From Pseudomonadota bacterium (lineage in GTDB: Bacteria; Pseudomonadota; Alphaproteobacteria; Micavibrionales; UBA2020): DNA of 64,000 bases. The notes under the pieces were generated by a model, which saw only the letters and a list, made by a program, of their open reading frames with translations, was not told the origin of the DNA and searched no databases. This document shows positions 2,996 to 51,770 of this stretch, piece by piece (position 1 is the first letter of the stretch; each line of letters begins with the position of its first letter). Both the position numbers and the translations under genes were made by a program. Where the stretch lies: positions 2,831 through 66,830 of the forward strand of contig JAZDGQ010000007.1 in assembly GCA_043806835.1 (NCBI GenBank), written 5' to 3'.

Positions 2996-4978
2996 ATGGC
3001 TGGCGGCATTTTGAAAAAGAATGACTATTCGGCGGCGGATATTGAGGTTCTGGAAGGGCTTGAGCCTGTCCGGAAGCGTCCGGGCATGTATATCGGCGGC
3101 ACCGATGAAGGCTCCATGCATCATCTGGTCAGCGAGATTCTGGATAATTCAATGGACGAGGCGGTGGCCGGCTATGCTTCCCGCATCGAGATCAGCCTTG
3201 GCGCCGGCAACAGGGTCACGATCCGGGACAATGGCCGGGGCATCCCCGTAGACAGCCATCCGAAGTTTCCCGGCATATCGGCCATGGAAGTTATTTTCAC
3301 GACTCTGCACTCCGGCGGCAAGTTCAGCGGCAAGGTTTACAACACCTCCGGCGGTCTGCACGGGGTCGGAGCCTCCGTCGTGAACGCGCTCTCGAGCGAA
3401 CTGATCGTGCAGGTCGCGCGGGACAAGGAACTCTATGAGCAAAGATACAGCCGGGGCAAAACCCTCGGAAAGCTGAAAAAACTGGGCGCGACGAAAGATC
3501 GTGGAACAACAGTCACTTTCGTCCCCGATGTTGAGATTTTCGGTGAGAAAGCAGCCTTCAATCCCAGGACCGTCTACAAGCTGGCGCGCTCCAAAGCCTA
3601 CCTCTATCGCGGCGTGGAGATTCAATGGAAGTGCGATCCCGAAACATTGAAAGGCGTTGAAGACGTTCCGGCGGAGGAAATCATCAGATTTCCGAACGGG
3701 ATACTGGATTATCTTCATTCTTTGGTTGAGGGAAAAACCTCCCTGACGCCGAAGCCCTTCTACGGAACGTCGGAATTTCCGAACGGCGAAGGGCGGTGCG
3801 AATTCGCCATTGCCTGGACGGAAGAGGAAAATGACGGCTTTCTCAGTTCCTACTGCAACACTATCCCGACGCCCGAAGGCGGCGCGCACGTTCAGGGGCT
3901 GCGCGCGGCTTTGTCAAAGGGGCTGAAAAATTACGCCGACATGGCAGGCAACAAGAAAGCGGGCATCCTGACACCGGACGACATCTTCGGCTCGGCGACG
4001 GCGTTGCTGTCCATCTTCATGCGCGAACCGCAGTTTCAGGGACAGACCAAGGAAAAACTGACGTCCGTCCATGCCACGCGGCTGATCGAAAACGCAGTGA
4101 AGGACAACTTTGAGCACTGGCTGACGGGGGATACGGCCTCCGGCAGATACCTGCTCGACTATCTCATCAACGTGGCGGAGGAACGCCGCCGTGCGAAGGA
4201 CGCGCAGGAAACGTCCCGCAAATCGGCGACGCGCAAATTGCGCCTCCCCGGCAAGCTCTCGGACTGCAGCCGGAAAACGTCGGAAGGCACAGAGATATTC
4301 ATCGTCGAGGGGGACTCCGCCGGCGGCTCCGCGAAGCAGGCGCGAAACCGCGAGCTTCAGGCCATCCTGCCCCTGCGCGGCAAGGTGCTGAACGTGGCCA
4401 GCGCGACCTCCGACAAGATCCGCGCCAATCAGGAAATCTCGGATCTCATTCAGGCCCTCGGCTGCGGCACGGGCAAGGATTTCAATCTGGACAAATTGCG
4501 CTACGAGCGCGTCATCATCATGACCGACGCCGACGTGGACGGGGCGCATATCGCCTCCCTGCTCATCACGCTGTTCTATCAGGAGATGCGGGGGCTTATT
4601 CAAAGCGGTGCTCTATATCTCGCCCTCCCGCCGCTCTACCGCCTGAGCTCAGGGGGGGAAAGCGTCTATGCCCGTGACGACGCCCATAAAGAGGAACTGA
4701 TGAAAACGGTCTTCAAGGGCAAGAAGAAGGTCGAGATGAGCCGGTTCAAGGGTCTTGGTGAAATGCCCGCGTCCCAGCTCAAGGAAACCACCATGGACAT
4801 GGGCAAGCGCGGCCTGCTCCGCGTGGTGCTGCCGGAATCCGAACGCAGCAGCGACGCCTTCAAAAAAGCGGAGGGCGGCACTGCTGCTCTCATCGAGCGA
4901 CTGATGGGCAAAAACCCGGAAGCCCGTTTTGAATTCATCCAGGAAAACGCAAAATTCGCGCGGGATATTGATATTTAG
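2996..4978 (+). CDS. parE: DNA topoisomerase IV subunit B
   Basis: GHKL ATPase motifs (VRKRPGMYIGG, EILDNSMDE, DNGRGIP), Toprim EGDSAGGSAKQ and PLRGKVLNV. The 660 aa length fits ParE rather than the ~800 aa GyrB. GAAGG SD before ATG 2996. Confidence 0.85.
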   Translation: MAGGILKKNDYSAADIEVLEGLEPVRKRPGMYIGGTDEGSMHHLVSEILDNSMDEAVAGYASRIEISLGAGNRVTIRDNGRGIPVDSHPKFPGISAMEVIFTTLHSGGKFSGKVYNTSGGLHGVGASVVNALSSELIVQVARDKELYEQRYSRGKTLGKLKKLGATKDRGTTVTFVPDVEIFGEKAAFNPRTVYKLARSKAYLYRGVEIQWKCDPETLKGVEDVPAEEIIRFPNGILDYLHSLVEGKTSLTPKPFYGTSEFPNGEGRCEFAIAWTEEENDGFLSSYCNTIPTPEGGAHVQGLRAALSKGLKNYADMAGNKKAGILTPDDIFGSATALLSIFMREPQFQGQTKEKLTSVHATRLIENAVKDNFEHWLTGDTASGRYLLDYLINVAEERRRAKDAQETSRKSATRKLRLPGKLSDCSRKTSEGTEIFIVEGDSAGGSAKQARNRELQAILPLRGKVLNVASATSDKIRANQEISDLIQALGCGTGKDFNLDKLRYERVIIMTDADVDGAHIASLLITLFYQEMRGLIQSGALYLALPPLYRLSSGGESVYARDDAHKEELMKTVFKGKKKVEMSRFKGLGEMPASQLKETTMDMGKRGLLRVVLPESERSSDAFKKAEGGTAALIERLMGKNPEARFEFIQENAKFARDIDI

Positions 4979-4980
4979 GG

Positions 4981-5048
4981 GCGCGAAGCGCGACGAGGGA
5001 TCTGGTTCGTTGCATCAGAGAAGATCCCTCACATGCGTTCGGGATGAC
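4981..5048. repeat. palindromic (MITE/REP-like) element, copy A, left arm truncated
   Basis: GAGGGATCT (4995-5003) pairs with AGATCCCTC (5022-5030). The right arm AGATCCCTCACATGCGTTCGGGATGAC is the same type as the copy at 9680-9755. It lies directly after the parE stop. Confidence 0.5.
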
Positions 5049-5073
5049 AATTGAAGGGTTTTTCAGCACCCCC

Positions 5074-8519: not shown

Positions 8520-8596
8520 TGGTCGGACTGAAAGGATTTGAACCTTCGACCCCTTGCACCCCATGCAAGTGCGCTACCAGGCTGCGCTACAGTCCG
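8520..8596 (-). tRNA. tRNA-Pro (anticodon GGG)
   Basis: The reverse complement folds by hand into a 77-nt cloverleaf: CGGACTG acceptor, GCGC D-stem, anticodon loop ATGGGGT (GGG, G37), TTCAAAT T-loop, encoded CCA. Confidence 0.85.
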
Positions 8597-9679: not shown

Positions 9680-9755
9680 GTCATTCCGAGGCGAAAAGCC
9701 GAGGAATCTTGTCAGGTTGCAACAATGAAGATCCCTCGCATTCGCTCGGTATGAC
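9680..9755. repeat. palindromic (MITE/REP-like) element, copy B
   Basis: Left arm GTCATTCCGAGGCGAAAAGCCGAGGAATCTT and right arm AAGATCCCTCGCATTCGCTCGGTATGAC are imperfect inverted repeats around a ~17-nt loop. It lies in the accA 5' region. Confidence 0.55.
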
Positions 9756-9820
9756 AGGTGTAAGTAGAAAATTCGTGCTTATTCGTGGTTTCACCTTTCC
9801 GCCAAACCATAGTCGAAATC

Positions 9821-9885: not shown

Positions 9886-10875
9886 TCAAGGAGCCCCGTT
9901 CGCCTTGGCGAGGGGGTGCTTGGTTTCCACGGCGTTTTTCATCTGTTCGCCGACAACCTGCGTGTAGATCTGGGTCGTGGCGATATCGGCATGGCCCAGC
10001 ATCTTCTGGACGGAGCGCAGATCCGCGCCGTGTTTCAGAAGGTGGGTCGCGAAAGCATGGCGCAGGACGTGCGGACTGACGCGGCCCGGATCGAGACCGG
10101 CGTTGCGCGACAGCTCTTTCAGCAGCTGGGCGAAACGCTGGCGGGTCAGGTGCCCGGATTCGGACGTGCGGGACGGGAACAGCCATTTGCTTTGCGCGTC
10201 GGCGCGGTCGGGCATCAGGAACCTGGTCCTGACGTCCATATACGCCTTCATCGCTTTCTGGGCGGGTTCGGACAGGGGAGCCATGCGTTCGCGGCCTCCC
10301 TTGCCTTCGACCGTCAGGTAGCGGCTTTCCGGACCGATGGAGGCCAGAGGCAGGCCGACCAGTTCGGAAACGCGCAGACCCGTCGCATAGAGGATCTCGA
10401 GCAGAGACACGAGACGGATGCTTTCCGGGCCACCCTGTTTCTGCGCCGTCGTGATCAGGACGGTGACTTCATCCTCGCTCAGGATTTTCGGCAGGGTGCG
10501 GGTTTGTTTCGGGCTTTCGATGGTGGACGTCGGATCATCCGACCGGGTGCCTTCGGAAACGAGAAATCCGAAGAATTGGCGTAATGCGGAAATGCGGCGC
10601 GCAATCGTGCGTACAGCCGTTTTGCCGCCACCCTTGCTTTTCACGTTCACGCGTTCCCCCAGCTCACCAAGGTAAGCCTTCAGATCGCTTGTCGCAGCGG
10701 TATTGATGTCCTTTCCCTGCTTTTTCAGGAAAGCGCAAACATCCGCAAGATCACGCTCATAAGCATGACGTGTGTTAAGAGCTGCACCGCGTTCGGCGAT
10801 GAGCATATCTAGAAATGCATCCACAGTGCCGGGAAGCGGCACTTTCGGCATTCTTGGACGACCTGGACGAGCCAT
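9886..10875 (-). CDS. xerD: site-specific tyrosine recombinase XerD
   Basis: Catalytic C-terminus ATGLRVSELVGL ... HVLRHAFATHLLKHGADLRSVQKMLGHADIATTQIYTQV. ATG 10875 (MARPGRP...). The accA-xerD-aroK neighbourhood is typical of chromosome-dimer resolution XerD. Confidence 0.85.
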   Translation of the reverse strand: MARPGRPRMPKVPLPGTVDAFLDMLIAERGAALNTRHAYERDLADVCAFLKKQGKDINTAATSDLKAYLGELGERVNVKSKGGGKTAVRTIARRISALRQFFGFLVSEGTRSDDPTSTIESPKQTRTLPKILSEDEVTVLITTAQKQGGPESIRLVSLLEILYATGLRVSELVGLPLASIGPESRYLTVEGKGGRERMAPLSEPAQKAMKAYMDVRTRFLMPDRADAQSKWLFPSRTSESGHLTRQRFAQLLKELSRNAGLDPGRVSPHVLRHAFATHLLKHGADLRSVQKMLGHADIATTQIYTQVVGEQMKNAVETKHPLAKANGAP

Positions 10876-36327: not shown

Positions 36328-36417
36328 TTTTCAGGTATCCCCTTTGTTTTTTATATGCTATTTCATGGAGGTCATCATACAGAGAAGCGTCGTAATTACA
36401 ATCCCCGAAGGATCGCA

Positions 36418-37587
36418 ATGTCCTTGCCTCATCTCCCTCCCCATGCCTCCGCGCTGCTGGCGCTCGCAGACGGAACGGTATTCTGGGGAAAGGGCGTCGG
36501 GGCGGAAGGCGTCACCGGCGGCGAAGTTTGCTTCAACACCTCCATGACCGGATACCAGGAAGCCCTGACCGACCCTTCCTACGCAGGGCAGATCATCACA
36601 TTCACCTTCCCGCATATCGGCAATACCGGTGCGAACGACCGTGACAATGAATCGGCCAGACCCTTCGTGAAAGGACTGATCCTCCGCACCGGCATCACAG
36701 CCCCCTCCAACCACCGGTCGGAACAGCCTTTCGACCTCTGGCTGAAGGAACGCAAACTGACGGGCATCTGCGGGATCGACACGCGGGCGCTGACGCGGCG
36801 TCTGCGCGATCACGGCGCGCAAAACGGCGTGATCTGCTTTTCTTCCGGACGGAAATTCAATCCGGAAGAACTTACCGCGCAGGCCAAAAACTGGCCGGGC
36901 ATGGACGGGATCGACATCGCCAGAACCGTTTCGACCGGAAAAATCTATCAGTGGCACGAACAGCCCTCCCCGGTAAAAGGCCATGTCGTCGTCCTCGACT
37001 ACGGCGTCAAGCGCAGCATCCTGCACTGCCTCGCCGCAGAGGGGCTCAGGCTGACGGTCGTTCCCTGCACCACGCCCGCCGACGAAATTCTGACGCTGCG
37101 CCCGGACGGGATATTCCTTTCCAACGGCCCCGGCGATCCGGCGGCCACCGGCGTTTACGCCGTCCCCGCTATCCGGAAACTCCTGGAATCCGGGCTGCCC
37201 CTGTTCGGCATCTGCCTCGGCCATCAGCTTCTGGCGCTGGCGCTCGGCGGCAGGACGGCCAAGCTTCCATTCGGTCATCGCGGCGCCAATCATCCGGTCA
37301 AAAATCTGGAGACCGGAAAGATAGAGATCACCAGCCAGAATCACGGCTTCCACGTCCTTCCCGCCAGTCTTCCGGACACCGTCGAGATCACGCACACAAG
37401 CCTGTTCGACGGCACGAACGAGGGTCTCCGCCTGAAGGGACGCCCGGTCTTTTCCGTGCAGTACCACCCGGAAGCCTCTCCGGGGCCGCAGGACAGCCGT
37501 CCCCTTTTCGGGCAATTCAGCCGGTACATCGCGGACGTCATGGATTTTCAGGAGGGGAAGCACGCATGCCGAAACGCACCGACATAA
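36418..37587 (+). CDS. carA: carbamoyl-phosphate synthase small (glutaminase) subunit
   Basis: ATG 36418. Motifs [30 protein letters not shown] (catalytic Cys) and [12 protein letters not shown]. Confidence 0.9.
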
Positions 37588-40500
37588 AATCCATCGTCAT
37601 CATCGGCGCGGGCCCCATCATCATCGGCCAGGCCTGCGAATTCGACTACTCCGGAACGCAGGCCTGCAAGGCTCTGAAGGACGAGGGATACCGGGTGATC
37701 CTCGTCAATTCCAACCCCGCCACCATCATGACCGATCCGGACTTCGCCGACGCGACCTACATCGAGCCCCTCACGCCGGAAATTGTGGCGAAGATACTCG
37801 AAAAAGAGAGGCCGGACGCGCTCCTGCCCACGATGGGCGGGCAGACGGCGCTCAATATCGCGCTGGCGCTGAGCACGGACGGCACGCTGGACAGGCTCGG
37901 CATCGAGCTGATCGGCGCAAAGAAAGAGGCCATAGAGCTGGCCGAAGACCGCGAACTCTTCAGGGAGACCATGAAGAAACTCGGTCTGGAATGCCCGAAG
38001 AGCAAGGCGGCGAAAAGTCTCTCTGCGGCGCTGGAGGCCCTGGAGCTCACGGGACTTCCCGCGATCATCCGCCCCTCTTTCACGCTCGGCGGCACCGGCG
38101 GGGGGATCGCCTATAACCGCGACGAATTCGAATCCATCGTCAAATCCGGCCTGCAGGCCTCTCCCGCCCGGCAGATCCTCGTCGAGGAATCCGTCATCGG
38201 CTGGACAGAGTACGAGATGGAGGTCATGCGCGACAAGGACGTCAACTGCATCGTCGTCTGCTCCATCGAGACCATCGACCCGATGGGCATCCACACGGGC
38301 GACAGCGTCACCGTCGCGCCCGCGCTCACCCTCACCGACAAGGAATATCAGGCGATGAGGAACGCCTCGATGTCCATCCTGCGCGGGATCGGCGTCGAAA
38401 CCGGCGGCTCCAACGTGCAGTTCGCCGTCAATCCCGCCAACGGGCAGATCGTCGTCATCGAAATGAACCCCCGCGTCAGCCGCTCCTCCGCGCTGGCCTC
38501 CAAGGCCGTCGGCTTCCCTATCGCGAAAGTGGCGGCGAAACTGGCCGTCGGATACACGCTCGACGAACTGCAGAACGACATTACCGGCGCGACCCCCGCC
38601 TCCTTCGAACCCTCCATCGATTACGTCGTCACGAAAATCCCGCGCTTCAACTTCGAGAAGTTCCCGGGCACCGAGGAACGCCTGACCACCTCCATGAAAT
38701 CCGTCGGGGAGGTGATGGCGATAGGCCGCACGTTCGAGGAATCCCTGCAGAAGGCGCTCTGCTCGCTGGAAACCGGGCTGACAGGGCTGAAGGAGATGAA
38801 CCTCGTCCCGGAGGGCAAGGAATTCCATCCACAGTATATTCTGGCAGCCCTGTCCCAGCCGCGCCCGGACCGCATTCTCGTGATCGCGCAGGCACTCCGC
38901 CACGGCTTCTCGACAGAAGAAATACATGACGCCAGCAAGTTCGACCGATGGTTTCTGGAGCGCATCCAGACCCTCGTCGTTCACGAGGAGAAGCTGAAGG
39001 AAAAGGGTCTTCCGAAAACTTACTATGACTGGATGGAAACCAAGCAACTTGGATTCTCTGACGCGCGCATCGGGGAACTCACGCACAAGAGCGAACGGGA
39101 TGTTGCCGGGCATCGGCGCAAGGCGGGCGCAACCCCCGTTTTCAAGCGCGTGGACACCTGCGCGGGCGAATTCGCCTCCAACACGGCCTATATGTATTCG
39201 ACGTATGAGTTTCCCTGTGTGTCTCCCCGGCAGGCTACCCCTCATCCTAACCTTCTCCCGCAAGGGGAGAAGGGACAGAAAGCCTCTTCTCCCTCTCCCC
39301 TCGCGGGAGAGGGGCGGGGTGAGGGGGATTCTTCCGACGAATGCCGCCCCTCCGCGAACAAAAAAGCGATCATCATCGGCTCCGGCCCCAACCGCATCGG
39401 CCAGGGGATCGAGTTCGATTACTGCTGCGTCCATGCCTCCTTCGCACTGCGCGAAAAAGGCATCGAAAGCATCATGATCAACTGCAATCCGGAAACGGTG
39501 TCCACCGACTACGACACATCCGACCGGCTTTACTTCGAACCCATCACCGCCGAAAAGGTGCTGGACATCATCCATGCCGAACAGGCGAACGGCGATATGC
39601 TCGGCGTCATCGTGCAGTTCGGCGGCCAGACCCCTCTCAAGCTCTGCCGGGAGCTTGAAGACGCGGGCGTCAAAATCCTCGGCACCAGCCCCGACGCCAT
39701 CGACCTCGCCGAGGACCGGGAACGCTTTTCAGAACTGATCCGCAAAATAAAGCTGAAACAGCCCGTCAACGGCGTCGCCCTCACCGCCGGGGAAGCGGAG
39801 GAGATCGCCGCAAAGATAGGCTTTCCCATCGTGCTCCGCCCCTCCTACGTCCTCGGCGGGCGCGGAATGGAAATCGTCCATGACATGCAGGCGCTCAGGC
39901 GCTACATCAAAACCGCCATACAGGTTTCCGGCGCGACCCCGCTGCTCATCGACCAATACCTGCAAAACTGCATCGAGGTGGACGTCGATGCGCTCTGCGA
40001 CGGCAAGGACGTCTTCATCGCCGGAGTGATGGAGCATATCGAGGAGGCGGGCATCCATTCCGGGGACAGCACCTGCTCGCTGCCACCCTATTCGCTGCGC
40101 CCGGAGATCGTCACCGGCCTGAGGGAACAGACGGCGGCGCTGGCCAGGGCGCTGAACGTCGTAGGGCTGATGAACGTGCAGTTCGCCGTCAGGCAGAGCC
40201 GCGACCCGTCCAATCTCGACCATTACGAAATCTACGTTCTGGAGGTCAATCCGCGCGCCTCGCGCACGGTGCCCTTTGTGGCGAAAGCGACGGGTCTTCC
40301 CGTGGTCAGGGCCGCGACGCGCCTGATGACCGGCGAGAAAATTCCGGAGCTTCTCTCCGGAGGCGTGCTTCATCACCGGACATTCAGCCATGTGGCGGTG
40401 AAAGCCCCCGTCTTTCCCTTCGAACGCTTTCCGAAGGTGGACGTCATCCTGGGTCCCGAAATGAAATCGACCGGAGAGGTCATGGGAATCGACCGGGACT

Positions 40501-40958
40501 TCCGCCGCGCCCTCGCCAAGGCCCGCATCGGGGCGGACTCCAAACTCCCCCTTTCCGGCACTGTCTTTATTTCCGTCAGGGATTCTGACAAAAATGCGAT
40601 TATCCCGCTGGCCGCACGGCTTTCCGATATGGGCTTCAGGATCGTCGCCACCGGCGGCACCGCCAGACATCTCGTGGAGGCCGGAATCCGCGCCCATAAG
40701 GTCAACAAGGTGCACGAAGGCCAGCCCCATGTCGTGGACGCCATGATAAACGGGGACATAGATCTGATGCTGAACACGACCGAAGGCCCGCAGGCTGTCG
40801 CTGACAGCTTTAACTTGCGTCGGGCGGCATTGCAGAATAAAATAACTTACTACACGACGATCTCCGGTGCCAAAGCGGCTGTCGATGCGATAGTGGCTTT
40901 GAGGCAGACGGAGCCTTTCGATGTGAAAACGCTGCAAGAATATTTGAAGACAGCGTAG
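37566..40958 (+). CDS. carB: carbamoyl-phosphate synthase large subunit (carries a 43-codon in-frame insertion)
   Basis: [37 protein letters not shown], with the second-half repeat [23 protein letters not shown]. 1130 aa. 22-bp overlap with carA. Confidence 0.92.
39210..39338. repeat. nested palindromic repeat element inserted in frame in carB
   Basis: CCTTCTCCC-gcaa-(G)GGGAGAAGG (39251-39273), CTCTCCC-ctcgc-GGGAGAG (39293-39311), and outer arms CCCCTCA/TGAGGGG. Translates as ...[13 protein letters not shown]...[13 protein letters not shown]..., between the conserved YSTYE and ECRPS...[16 protein letters not shown]. Confidence 0.6.
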
Positions 40959-46405: not shown

Positions 46406-46409
46406 CTGT

Positions 46410-46449
46410 CCATTTCCCTTCTCCCATTGTGGGAGAGGGGGAAGATGGG
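46410..46449. repeat. imperfect 40-bp palindrome after ppdK (related to the carB insert; possible terminator/REP)
   Basis: CCATTTCCCTTCTCCC-attgt-GGGAGAGGGGGAAGATGG begins 5 nt after the ppdK TGA. It has the same CTCTCCC/GGGAGAG core as the 39293-39311 hairpin. Confidence 0.45.
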
Positions 46450-46467
46450 CTAAAAGAGAGGCAAAGT

Positions 46468-50650: not shown

Positions 50651-51640
50651 CTATCCTCCCGTCGATGCCAGATTTTGCCGCGCGCCCGTATCCCCCTCGT
50701 TCAGGAAATGCGAGATTTTCTTGACGCGCATCAGTCGCAGGACTGTTTCCTGAAGCTCCTCTTTCTGCCCGTCCTCCTGTAACAGAGGCCGCAGGGAATG
50801 ACCGCCCGTCCCGAACAGGCACAAGTGCAGGTCTCCCCGCGCCGAAACGCGCAGGCGGTTGCACACCGCGCAGAAACCTTTCGAATAAGGCGCGATGATG
50901 CCGACGCGCCCCCTGTAGCCGGAATGCGCGTATTCGACGGCTGGACCCTGCCCCTCCCCGCGCTCCAGAAGACGCCAGCCTTGCGCCGCCAGCTTTTCGC
51001 GGACGACGGCGGCAGGAACGTGATGTCTGCGGAAATAATCCGCATTGTCTCCGGTCTCCATCAGTTCGATAAATCTCAGCGAAACGGATCTGTCCGCGAT
51101 AAAGTCGAGGAACCCTTCCAGTTCGTCGTCGTTCAGCCCTTTCAGCAAAACGGCATTGATCTTGACGGCGTCGAAGCCGACGTCCAGCGCGGCCTGCACG
51201 CCTTCAACGACTTCAACCAGACGGTCATGCCCCGTGATGTCGCAGTACCTGCGGGGATCGAGAGAATCGATGCTGATATTGACCGCCCGCAGACCCGCCG
51301 CATGATAGCCCCGCGCCCTCCCGGCCAGCCCGTAACCATTGGTCGTGAAGGCAAGGCGGCGGATGCCGAGAACGCCAGCAACCATTTTTGCAATGTCGCA
51401 AAAATCCTTCCTGACCGTCGGCTCTCCCCCCGTCAGGCGGACTTTCCAGCACCCTAAGCCCGCAAAGGCTTCGACGAGGCGGCGGATCTCGGGCACGCTT
51501 AAAAAAGAATCCCCATGCGTTTTCCGGTACCCCTCCGGTAAGCAATAGCTGCAACGGAAGTTGCAGGCCTCCGTCACCGACAGGCGCAAATACGGGAAGC
51601 GACGGCCGAAGCCGTCTTCGATGTTCGTTTCCAAGTTCAC
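50651..51640 (-). CDS. moaA: GTP 3',8-cyclase MoaA (radical SAM)
   Basis: YLRLSVTEACNFRCSYCLPEG (CxxxCxxC) and C-terminal FCAVCNRLRVSARG. The ORF-track start GTG 51640 overlaps the SD-like GGGG; TTG 51634 is better spaced. Confidence 0.9.
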   Translation of the reverse strand: MNLETNIEDGFGRRFPYLRLSVTEACNFRCSYCLPEGYRKTHGDSFLSVPEIRRLVEAFAGLGCWKVRLTGGEPTVRKDFCDIAKMVAGVLGIRRLAFTTNGYGLAGRARGYHAAGLRAVNISIDSLDPRRYCDITGHDRLVEVVEGVQAALDVGFDAVKINAVLLKGLNDDELEGFLDFIADRSVSLRFIELMETGDNADYFRRHHVPAAVVREKLAAQGWRLLERGEGQGPAVEYAHSGYRGRVGIIAPYSKGFCAVCNRLRVSARGDLHLCLFGTGGHSLRPLLQEDGQKEELQETVLRLMRVKKISHFLNEGDTGARQNLASTGG

Positions 51641-51740
51641 CCCTTTTCAAAGTCGGAAGGCCGAAGCGTTTCCCCTTCGACCCCGGCTGCGCGGCCATAT
51701 CCCAGAGGAACTTAGGCTGCGCGGCTCGGAGTTTTTAGTT
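51641..51740 (-). promoter_or_regulatory. candidate Moco (molybdenum cofactor) riboswitch in the moaA leader
   Basis: The minus-strand RNA reads AAAAACUCCGAGCCGCGCAGCC...CCUCUGGGAUAUGGCC...GGUCGAAG-GGGAAACG-CUUCGGCC-UUCCGACUUUGAAAAGGGGUG. ACUCC can pair with the GGGGU that overlaps the SD and start. The layout resembles the E. coli moaA leader as I recall it. Confidence 0.6.
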
Positions 51741-51770
51741 ATGCGGCATTCAGTATGGATATTCTCCTGT

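Follow-up and report, generated by a model that had tools for sequence, protein, structure and literature searches.

A probable BoxC-type inverted doublet located in frame within the carB coding sequence of an alphaproteobacterium

Introduction

BoxC repeats, also termed potential intrastrand triplex (PIT) elements, have been known since the 1990s, and to our knowledge neither their function nor the way in which they spread has been established. Holder et al. (2015, PMC4666352) described BoxC and PIT as the same repeat, TM_ECO, with the pattern 5'-CCCTCNCCC-N3-6-GGGNGAGGG-N3-GGGNGAGGG-3', and reported 3610 copies in 262 proteobacterial genomes. Escherichia coli K-12 carries 23 copies, "always located intergenically", with inverted pairs at five sites, and many E. 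coli copies carry a mismatch (PMC4666352). A single strand of TM_ECO forms a triplex in vitro, and the motif showed no promoter or terminator activity, was associated with local genomic instability and was not linked to mobile elements (PMC4666352). In this study, we analyzed a 64,000-nt stretch (hereafter, the window; contig JAZDGQ010000007.1, positions 2,831 to 66,830, assembly GCA_043806835.1) of a Pseudomonadota bacterium assigned to the alphaproteobacterial lineage Micavibrionales UBA2020, in which carB, the gene for the large subunit of carbamoyl-phosphate synthase (CPS), contains a palindromic insert that is very probably a BoxC-type inverted doublet.

Entry into genes is the behavior that made the Rickettsia palindromic elements (RPEs) notable. 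In R. conorii, open reading frames (ORFs) contain almost half of the 44 copies, according to the summary in PMC10969869 of the work of Ogata et al. (2000, 2002). An initial annotation of the window, made from the letters alone, had described the carB insert as behaving like an RPE. Below, we set out what the insert is, where it lies in the enzyme, and how it compares with the repeat systems described so far.

Results

The CarB product was aligned to the E. coli enzyme with HMMER and searched against Pfam. It matched E. coli CarB structures at 1360 bits, translation placed its start at the ATG at 37566, and Pfam recovered both ATP-grasp halves, the oligomerization domain (residues 428-506), the second preATP-grasp domain (from residue 598) and the MGS domain. 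The alignment to E. coli CarB (1bxr) was split at the insert, with query residues 1-552 corresponding to E. coli 1-552 and query residues 592-1111 to E. coli 552-1056, and the 43 additional codons, which are in frame and contain no stop, map to about residues 548-552 of the E. coli enzyme. We take this to be the point in the E. coli CPS structure at which the oligomerization domain (~404-553) ends and the carbamoyl-phosphate domain begins. By the Pfam boundaries, the insert (residues 549-591) lies between the oligomerization domain and the second preATP-grasp domain, which agrees with the initial annotation in placing it between the oligomerization domain and the second ATP-grasp half. The initial annotation had also stated that carB is interrupted by exactly 129 nt; the in-frame, stop-free interruption of 43 codons stands, but the figure of exactly 129 nt applies only relative to E. 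coli-type flanks, and the repeat itself is 92 nt long.

Linker length was measured from the YSTYE motif to a downstream conserved motif in 105 of 120 protein fragments (those with both motifs) and in ~160 fetched carB loci. The linker was 56 aa in the window CarB vs 16-30 aa in nearly all of the ~265 homologues, being 16 aa in most Beta- and Gammaproteobacteria and 21-23 aa in most Alphaproteobacteria. The excess over the usual alphaproteobacterial linker (22 aa) was about 34 aa, and linkers longer than 30 aa occurred in just three other sequences. The insert had no counterpart in any other CarB examined. It lies in a naturally length-variable linker of CarB, and the rest of the protein is intact. 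Linkers of 36 aa (L054) and 44 aa (L058) were long but non-palindromic (fold z-scores of +0.97 and -0.57), and they were rejected as further palindromic inserts because these scores were not significant. As a separate observation, CarBs of Erythrobacteraceae and Novosphingobium (L042, L044, L046, L047, L049, L053) contain ~30 additional residues inside the oligomerization domain, upstream of YSTYE and at a site other than that of the insert, and their match spans ~720 nt vs ~630 nt elsewhere.

The best CarB matches were 53-55% identical over query segments that include the insert. No close relative was found in the protein search, where the best match to a 244-aa segment including the insert had 55% identity, in genome contigs (best 55% among the matches listed) or in metagenome contigs (best 54%, with a less conserved segment as the query). 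Look-ups by exact sequence gave no record for either CarB or GreA. Accordingly, the collections searched contained no empty site, the relatives being too distant, and the E. coli locus with the best doublet (see below) has divergent flanks that allow no empty-site comparison.

The composition of the insert differed from that of its host gene. GC contents at the three codon positions were 0.72/0.60/0.58 in the insert and 0.60/0.42/0.80 in carB without it, and the third-position value of 0.58 vs 0.80 indicates that the insert has not acquired the third-position bias of the gene. Three of the six frames of the segment are open (two forward, one reverse). No Pfam family matched the insert, and an intein or protein domain was rejected on that ground and on its size of only 43 aa. 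An AlphaFold model of CarB residues 449-692, built with 60 homologues, gave predicted local distance difference test (pLDDT) values of 45-53 across the insert, almost without secondary structure, and of 82-97 in the flanks (82 and 87 in the adjoining ten-residue blocks, 90-97 in most of the upstream domain). In this model the insert is a low-confidence coil, probably a disordered loop rich in Pro, Gly and Ser.

The DNA of the insert is a nested palindrome, as the initial annotation had described. Two perfect 9-bp stems (39251-39273 and 39291-39313) are nested in outer complementary arms; the overall arms of the palindrome are 46 nt long and 76% complementary, and the terminal arms of 36 nt match at 29/36 positions as an inverted repeat. 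The hairpin pattern was observed three times in the window against an expectation of 0.03, and the fold z-score was -5.3 as RNA (-83 kcal/mol over 151 nt) and -3.9 as DNA. We then searched for three-domain motifs, in which a homopyrimidine arm is followed by its exact complement and then by a third arm restricted to G*G, A*A or T*A triads. Two such motifs, and no more, were present in the 64-kb window; 20 shuffled windows gave no hit. The hairpin excess, the fold z-scores and the shuffled-window control together indicate that the palindrome is beyond chance.

Both motifs comply with the base-triad rule, scoring 9/9 for Watson-Crick pairing and 9/9 for permitted triads with the third strand. 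In the minus-strand motif, each of the three domains departs from the canonical pattern at one position, and these positions correspond; the variant triplet, CCTTCTCCC/GGGAGAAGG/GGATGAGGG, recurs in ten other copies. Further variants with matched changes in the three domains were found, such as CCCTCCCCC / GGGGGAGGG / GGGTGGGGG; since the triad rule itself selected the tabulated variants, the tabulation is suggestive and is not an unbiased covariation test. Rfam assigned the insert to no family at the gathering score, with generic hairpin (miRNA-precursor) matches below threshold. The initial annotation had pointed to a related hairpin just after ppdK. Such a hairpin exists, but its relationship is limited to the stem: it has no third domain and matches the family weakly (nhmmer E = 0.028). 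Intrinsic termination was rejected for both the carB hairpins and the ppdK hairpin, as they have no T-run and none was called a terminator. Conversely, a hairpin at 651-676 was rejected as a member of the BoxC-type family because it is an ordinary terminator with a T-run.

The plus-strand motif fits the published TM_ECO pattern exactly, and it matched a profile of 141 copies with an nhmmer E-value of 2.7e-8. The two motifs lie on opposite strands, which is the known inverted-pair arrangement. A BLASTN search of 5426 complete E. coli genomes gave matches in 4301 of them. A full-length match, in the wzc-wcaA spacer of strain 14EC033, had 80.4% identity over 92 nt (query 7-98, corresponding to 39238-39329). 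Among single-arm matches, the arm with the minus-strand motif reached 92.7% over 41 nt, and that with the plus-strand motif up to 92.5% over 40 nt. The carB doublet is collinear with this wzc-wcaA copy and with intergenic copies in L312, L313 and L314, and it is this homology that confirms the view of the initial annotation that the insert is a GC-rich repeat of the intergenic type.

Nearly identical doublets were located between genes in L312, L313, L314 (L314-L316) and L081, the L081 copies lying between the hydantoinase A and B genes, and in L312 a run of 26 nt is identical to the minus-strand motif, hairpin loop included. Doublets of matching layout (C-rich box, hairpin, spacer, hairpin, G-rich box) were present in L114, L155, L158, L165 and L170, and neither the length nor the sequence of the spacer between the motifs was constant in the other doublets. 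A split gatA in L312 was considered as another insertion and rejected as a simple frameshift. The right-arm motif GGGAGAGGGNYGGGGTGAGGG was found in at least 120 IMG/VR contigs, which may include bacterial flanks, and the composite DNA pattern had no match in viral contigs.

The repeat also leaves a peptide signature. An exhaustive peptide search showed that the blocks PHPNLLPxGEKG and then SPSPLxGEGxGEG recur in short ORFs, and a word-indexed search with the peptide alone gave one candidate. A profile of the peptide blocks matched 1053 proteins; the 120 listed were 33-91 aa long, and 119 of them had no Pfam domain. Judged by their sequences, these short ORFs look like miscalled reading frames over intergenic repeats. 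In addition, some genomes contain tandem arrays, formed by the doublet and a unit of ~30-60 aa in alternation, that are read as long repetitive ORFs (P0122-P0128, P0133 and P0136); P0122 and P0124, for instance, have four to six repeats. The exact fit to the pattern and the homology to E. coli copies identify the insert as a BoxC-type inverted doublet of which only the location is atypical, and we consider it highly probable that carB contains within its coding sequence a BoxC/PIT/TM_ECO copy of ~92 bp, an inverted pair of 35-nt motifs.

A second in-frame case was found in L259, a metagenome contig with an unrelated CarB whose linker is of the Beta/Gammaproteobacteria-like type. This linker contains an in-frame insert of 26-27 aa at 10373-10465, and the DNA of the insert is a different triplex-type hairpin, CCCCCTCTT / AAGAGGGGG / GGGGGAGTT, with a fold z-score of -5.2 and a score of 9/9 for both pairs and triads. 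Also on L259, at 4890-4950 in pyrC, an in-frame stretch looks like the motif (nhmmer E = 3.9e-6); it falls in a variable loop of dihydroorotase that is 5 aa longer than that of the Aquifex enzyme. Together with the carB insert of the window, the L259 case indicates that entry of the BoxC family into coding sequence is rare but recurrent.

We also examined whether the repeats accompany particular genes. All genes met that encode DUF559 proteins (PF04480, Vsr-like PD-(D/E)XK), on 17 contigs, were flanked by triplex-type or hairpin modules, including the genes fetched independently of the motif and E. coli ycjD. The usual layout is a hairpin and G-rich box upstream and a C-rich box and hairpin downstream, and the C-terminus of the DUF559 protein often runs into the repeat. 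In L306-L311 the sequence differs and the layout is retained. The inverted repeats flanking DUF559 genes (12-29 nt) were at least as long as the longest in shuffled flanks in 9/9 loci tested. In E. coli, TM_ECO copy 9 lies ~170 nt downstream of ycjD, and the 3' end of ycjD runs into a degenerate motif. Part of the 3' end of ycjD (METVLENIRQGLNR...) is also duplicated between ycjD and this BoxC copy, at L317 1400-1640 (fabI-ycjD), apparently as what is left of a second DUF559 gene.

The position of these genes relative to carB was also recorded. All four DUF559 genes among the ~160 carB-centered loci (L010, L052, L225, L233) lie directly upstream of the carB start, and solo triplex motifs occupy the equivalent place in L034 and L235. 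The in-frame motifs of the window and of L259 precede the paralogous '..IIxGxGP' codons in the second half of CarB by 33-37 nt. The region upstream of the CarB halves may be a target hotspot, or these cases may reflect shared ancestry. No DUF559 gene was found in the 64-kb window, and the searchable literature contained no mention of a link between BoxC motifs and DUF559 genes. The coordinates of all these features are given in Table 1.

Table 1. Location of the carB insert, its repeat motifs and the related loci. Positions without a locus name refer to the window.
Feature	Location	Strand	Remarks
carB (carbamoyl-phosphate synthase large subunit)	37566..40958	+	1130 aa, intact
Additional in-frame codons (43) relative to E. 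coli-type CarB	39210..39338	+	residues 549-591; from translation and HMMER alignment
Probable BoxC/TM_ECO-type inverted doublet, 92 nt	39238..39329		ends set by homology
Triplex-type motif, type-A-like variant	39239..39273	-	CCTTCTCCC cttgc GGGAGAAGG tta GGATGAGGG
Spacer between the motifs, 17 nt	39274..39290
Triplex-type motif, type B	39291..39325	+	CCCTCTCCC ctcgc GGGAGAGGG gcg GGGTGAGGG
Solo hairpin in the 62-nt spacer between ppdK and a P-type ATPase gene	46408..46450		shares the CCYTCTCCC/GGGAGAGGG stem; DNA fold z = -2.8
DUF559 loci fetched by DNA motif	L107 602-916; L123 243-545; L191 2561-2857
DUF559 loci fetched by DUF559 homology alone	L301, L302, L304, L306-L311, gene at ~1501-1800 in each		nine contigs
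DUF559 loci fetched by carB homology	L010 8268-8573; L052 2-295; L225 525-890; L233 1487-1780
DUF559 gene in the annotated E. coli K-12 record	L317 1608-1961		ycjD
DUF559/motif regions before carB	L010 8139-8624; L052 300-452; L225 454-962; L233 1354-1844		carB ATG of L010 at 8645
Solo triplex motifs before the carB start	L034 8596-8663; L235 11-71

In the window, carB is flanked by carA and greA, as expected. The carA ORF (36355-37587) overlaps the carB ATG by 22 nt, so there is no carA-carB spacer here, unlike in the loci that carry DUF559 genes or motifs at that place. The GC content of the window is 57.9%, and the nearest CarBs are those of free-living Alphaproteobacteria. Elsewhere in the window, a molybdenum cofactor (Moco) riboswitch at 51624-51743 (minus strand, 70.7 bits) and a tRNA gene at 8523-8596 (minus strand) were the sole Rfam matches at the gathering score. 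A second, unrelated repeat family is represented at 4995-5049 and 9702-9756, with 83% likeness over 41 nt (GTTGCAxCAxxGAAGATCCCTCxCATxCGxTCGGxATGACA) and with both copies in predicted hairpins.

Discussion

Several points weigh against reading the carB insert as an inserted BoxC-type doublet. The doublet measures 92 nt, which is not divisible by three, so the flanks at 39210-39237 and 39330-39338 must hold further change. All 85 E. coli matches listed are intergenic, with no annotated feature beneath them, and the family is reported to be always intergenic in E. coli K-12, which makes a coding location atypical. Within the 64 kb, the doublet has a single, weak hairpin relative, and a multi-copy status in this genome is at most presumptive. 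The low pLDDT of the insert is partly forced, as no homologue in the alignment covers it. The collections searched yielded neither a close relative nor an empty site, so that insertion as an event, the precise termini of the element and a possible target-site duplication are inferred rather than observed, and translation of the insert is likewise deduced from the reading frame.

For the BoxC-type insertion, we propose that the repeat arrived by whatever process spreads the BoxC family, which might be copying linked to a DUF559 nuclease or template switching at hairpins. It would have survived by passing three filters: its net length is divisible by three, its reading frame is open, and the surface linker is tolerant. 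Only insertions that pass all of these would persist in an essential gene. The insert would then be transcribed and translated as a passenger loop without a function of its own. The DNA itself may act as a local hotspot where polymerases stall or deletions occur, in line with what has been reported for the BoxC family, and at the mRNA level only the hairpins could form. The insertion is probably recent, because both motifs are perfect and the codon bias of carB has not been acquired.

A more specific account of the arrival, compatible with a BoxC-type insertion, is that BoxC repeats are the ends and solo derivatives of a selfish cassette (motif, DUF559 endonuclease, motif) that prefers DNA just upstream of each CarB half. 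The doublets in carB of the window and of L259 would then be footprints of a YcjD-like, Vsr-fold DUF559 cassette at the second half, and the in-frame copy an off-target event at this paralogous site. We regard this account as tentative and, on balance, rather doubtful. It is consistent with the motif modules beside every DUF559 gene seen, with the four DUF559 genes and the solo motifs just before the carB start, and with the paralogous position of the two in-frame motifs, and the Vsr/DUF559 clade includes a homing endonuclease (PMC3424549). However, the window has no DUF559 gene, the E. coli copies occupy many unrelated intergenic sites, and ycjD lies beside fabI, not carB. The four carB-proximal cases may share ancestry and so would not be independent, no nuclease activity or target is known for these proteins, and Holder et al. 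saw no link of the motif to mobile elements (PMC4666352). If such a cassette exists, the analogy suggests a parallel to REPIN-RAYT systems or to free-standing homing endonucleases.

Co-option of the insert would be another explanation. The loop could alter the oligomerization, allostery or partner binding of CarB, or the mRNA hairpin could slow ribosomes between the two halves and so aid folding. The perfect preservation of both motifs, the strong structure (-83 kcal/mol over 151 nt, z = -5.3), the site at the boundary of the oligomerization domain and the similar insert at the same spot in a second lineage (L259) would all suit such a role. Yet the insert is absent from all the other CarBs examined, its codon composition is non-coding-like, and the loop is predicted to be disordered, while a recent insertion would explain the perfect motifs equally well. 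We therefore consider co-option improbable.

A native, lineage-specific expansion of the linker that is palindromic by coincidence, with no repeat element involved, is very hard to credit. Linker length does vary, and L054 and L058 show that non-palindromic expansions occur. Such an expansion is contradicted by the end-to-end alignment of the segment with intergenic repeats of E. coli and of metagenomes at 80-93% DNA identity, and it leaves the exact fit to the 35-nt three-domain pattern, found in none of the shuffled windows, and the missing GC3 bias of the host gene without explanation. Although repeats can cause misassembly, an assembly chimera at the repeat or decay of carB into a pseudogene can practically be dismissed, given that the reading frame is kept at both junctions, the carB sequence on either side is unbroken with all CarB domains intact, and carA and greA flank it as expected.

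The presence of a perfect doublet in an essential, highly conserved enzyme suggests that the BoxC family can enter coding sequence and add loops to proteins. The second, independent case in L259 marks the CarB linker as a permissive site, and the insert provides a natural test of how replication, transcription and translation cope with a triplex- or hairpin-prone sequence inside a gene. The flanking of DUF559 genes, if true, would provide the first candidate enzyme for the BoxC family, and the carB insert would become more interesting if both the DUF559 link and the carB hotspot hold.

Among the repeat systems described so far, REP and REPIN sequences share with the doublet the GC-rich palindromes and the inverted arrangement, and in both systems the repeats border, in related loci, a small gene that encodes an enzyme acting on nucleic acids, most copies being solo. 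Inverted REPs typically lie on either side of RAYT genes. No RAYT gene is associated with the carB insert, although no search aimed at RAYT was made. The gene flanked in the BoxC-related loci differs, as it encodes a DUF559 PD-(D/E)XK nuclease (PF04480) and not an IS200/IS605-type HUH transposase, and the BoxC motif has a third domain and no demonstrated mobilization. Miniature inverted-repeat transposable elements that fuse in frame with genes (ERIC, BOX, Correia; PMC10969869) resemble the insert in their small size, in their terminal inverted repeats (29/36 here) and in an occasional in-frame position within genes. Unlike them, the insert has no known parent insertion sequence and no visible target-site duplication, none being common to the flanks of four aligned doublet copies.

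The comparison with RPEs that the initial annotation had drawn can be kept in part. Both are short palindromic repeats that lie in frame in housekeeping genes at fold-compatible sites, and the peptide recurs wherever the element is translated. The insert is not itself an RPE and is instead homologous to BoxC: it belongs to another sequence family, it is GC-rich and ~92 bp long, whereas RPEs are given as about 150 bp in PMC10969869, and RPEs enter genes often, whereas the BoxC family is overwhelmingly intergenic. The resemblance is one of behavior only, by analogy.

With BoxC/PIT/TM_ECO itself, the insert shares the three-domain motif, composed of a C-rich arm, a G-rich arm and a second G-rich arm mirroring the first. 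The carB copy differs from the K-12 copies, which are intergenic, in lying in frame in an essential gene; one of its arms is a variant at the matching position of the three domains, and its host is an alphaproteobacterium without a close sequenced relative in the collections searched. The carB insert is not a new kind of element; it is a known kind of repeat in a location not previously reported for the BoxC family.

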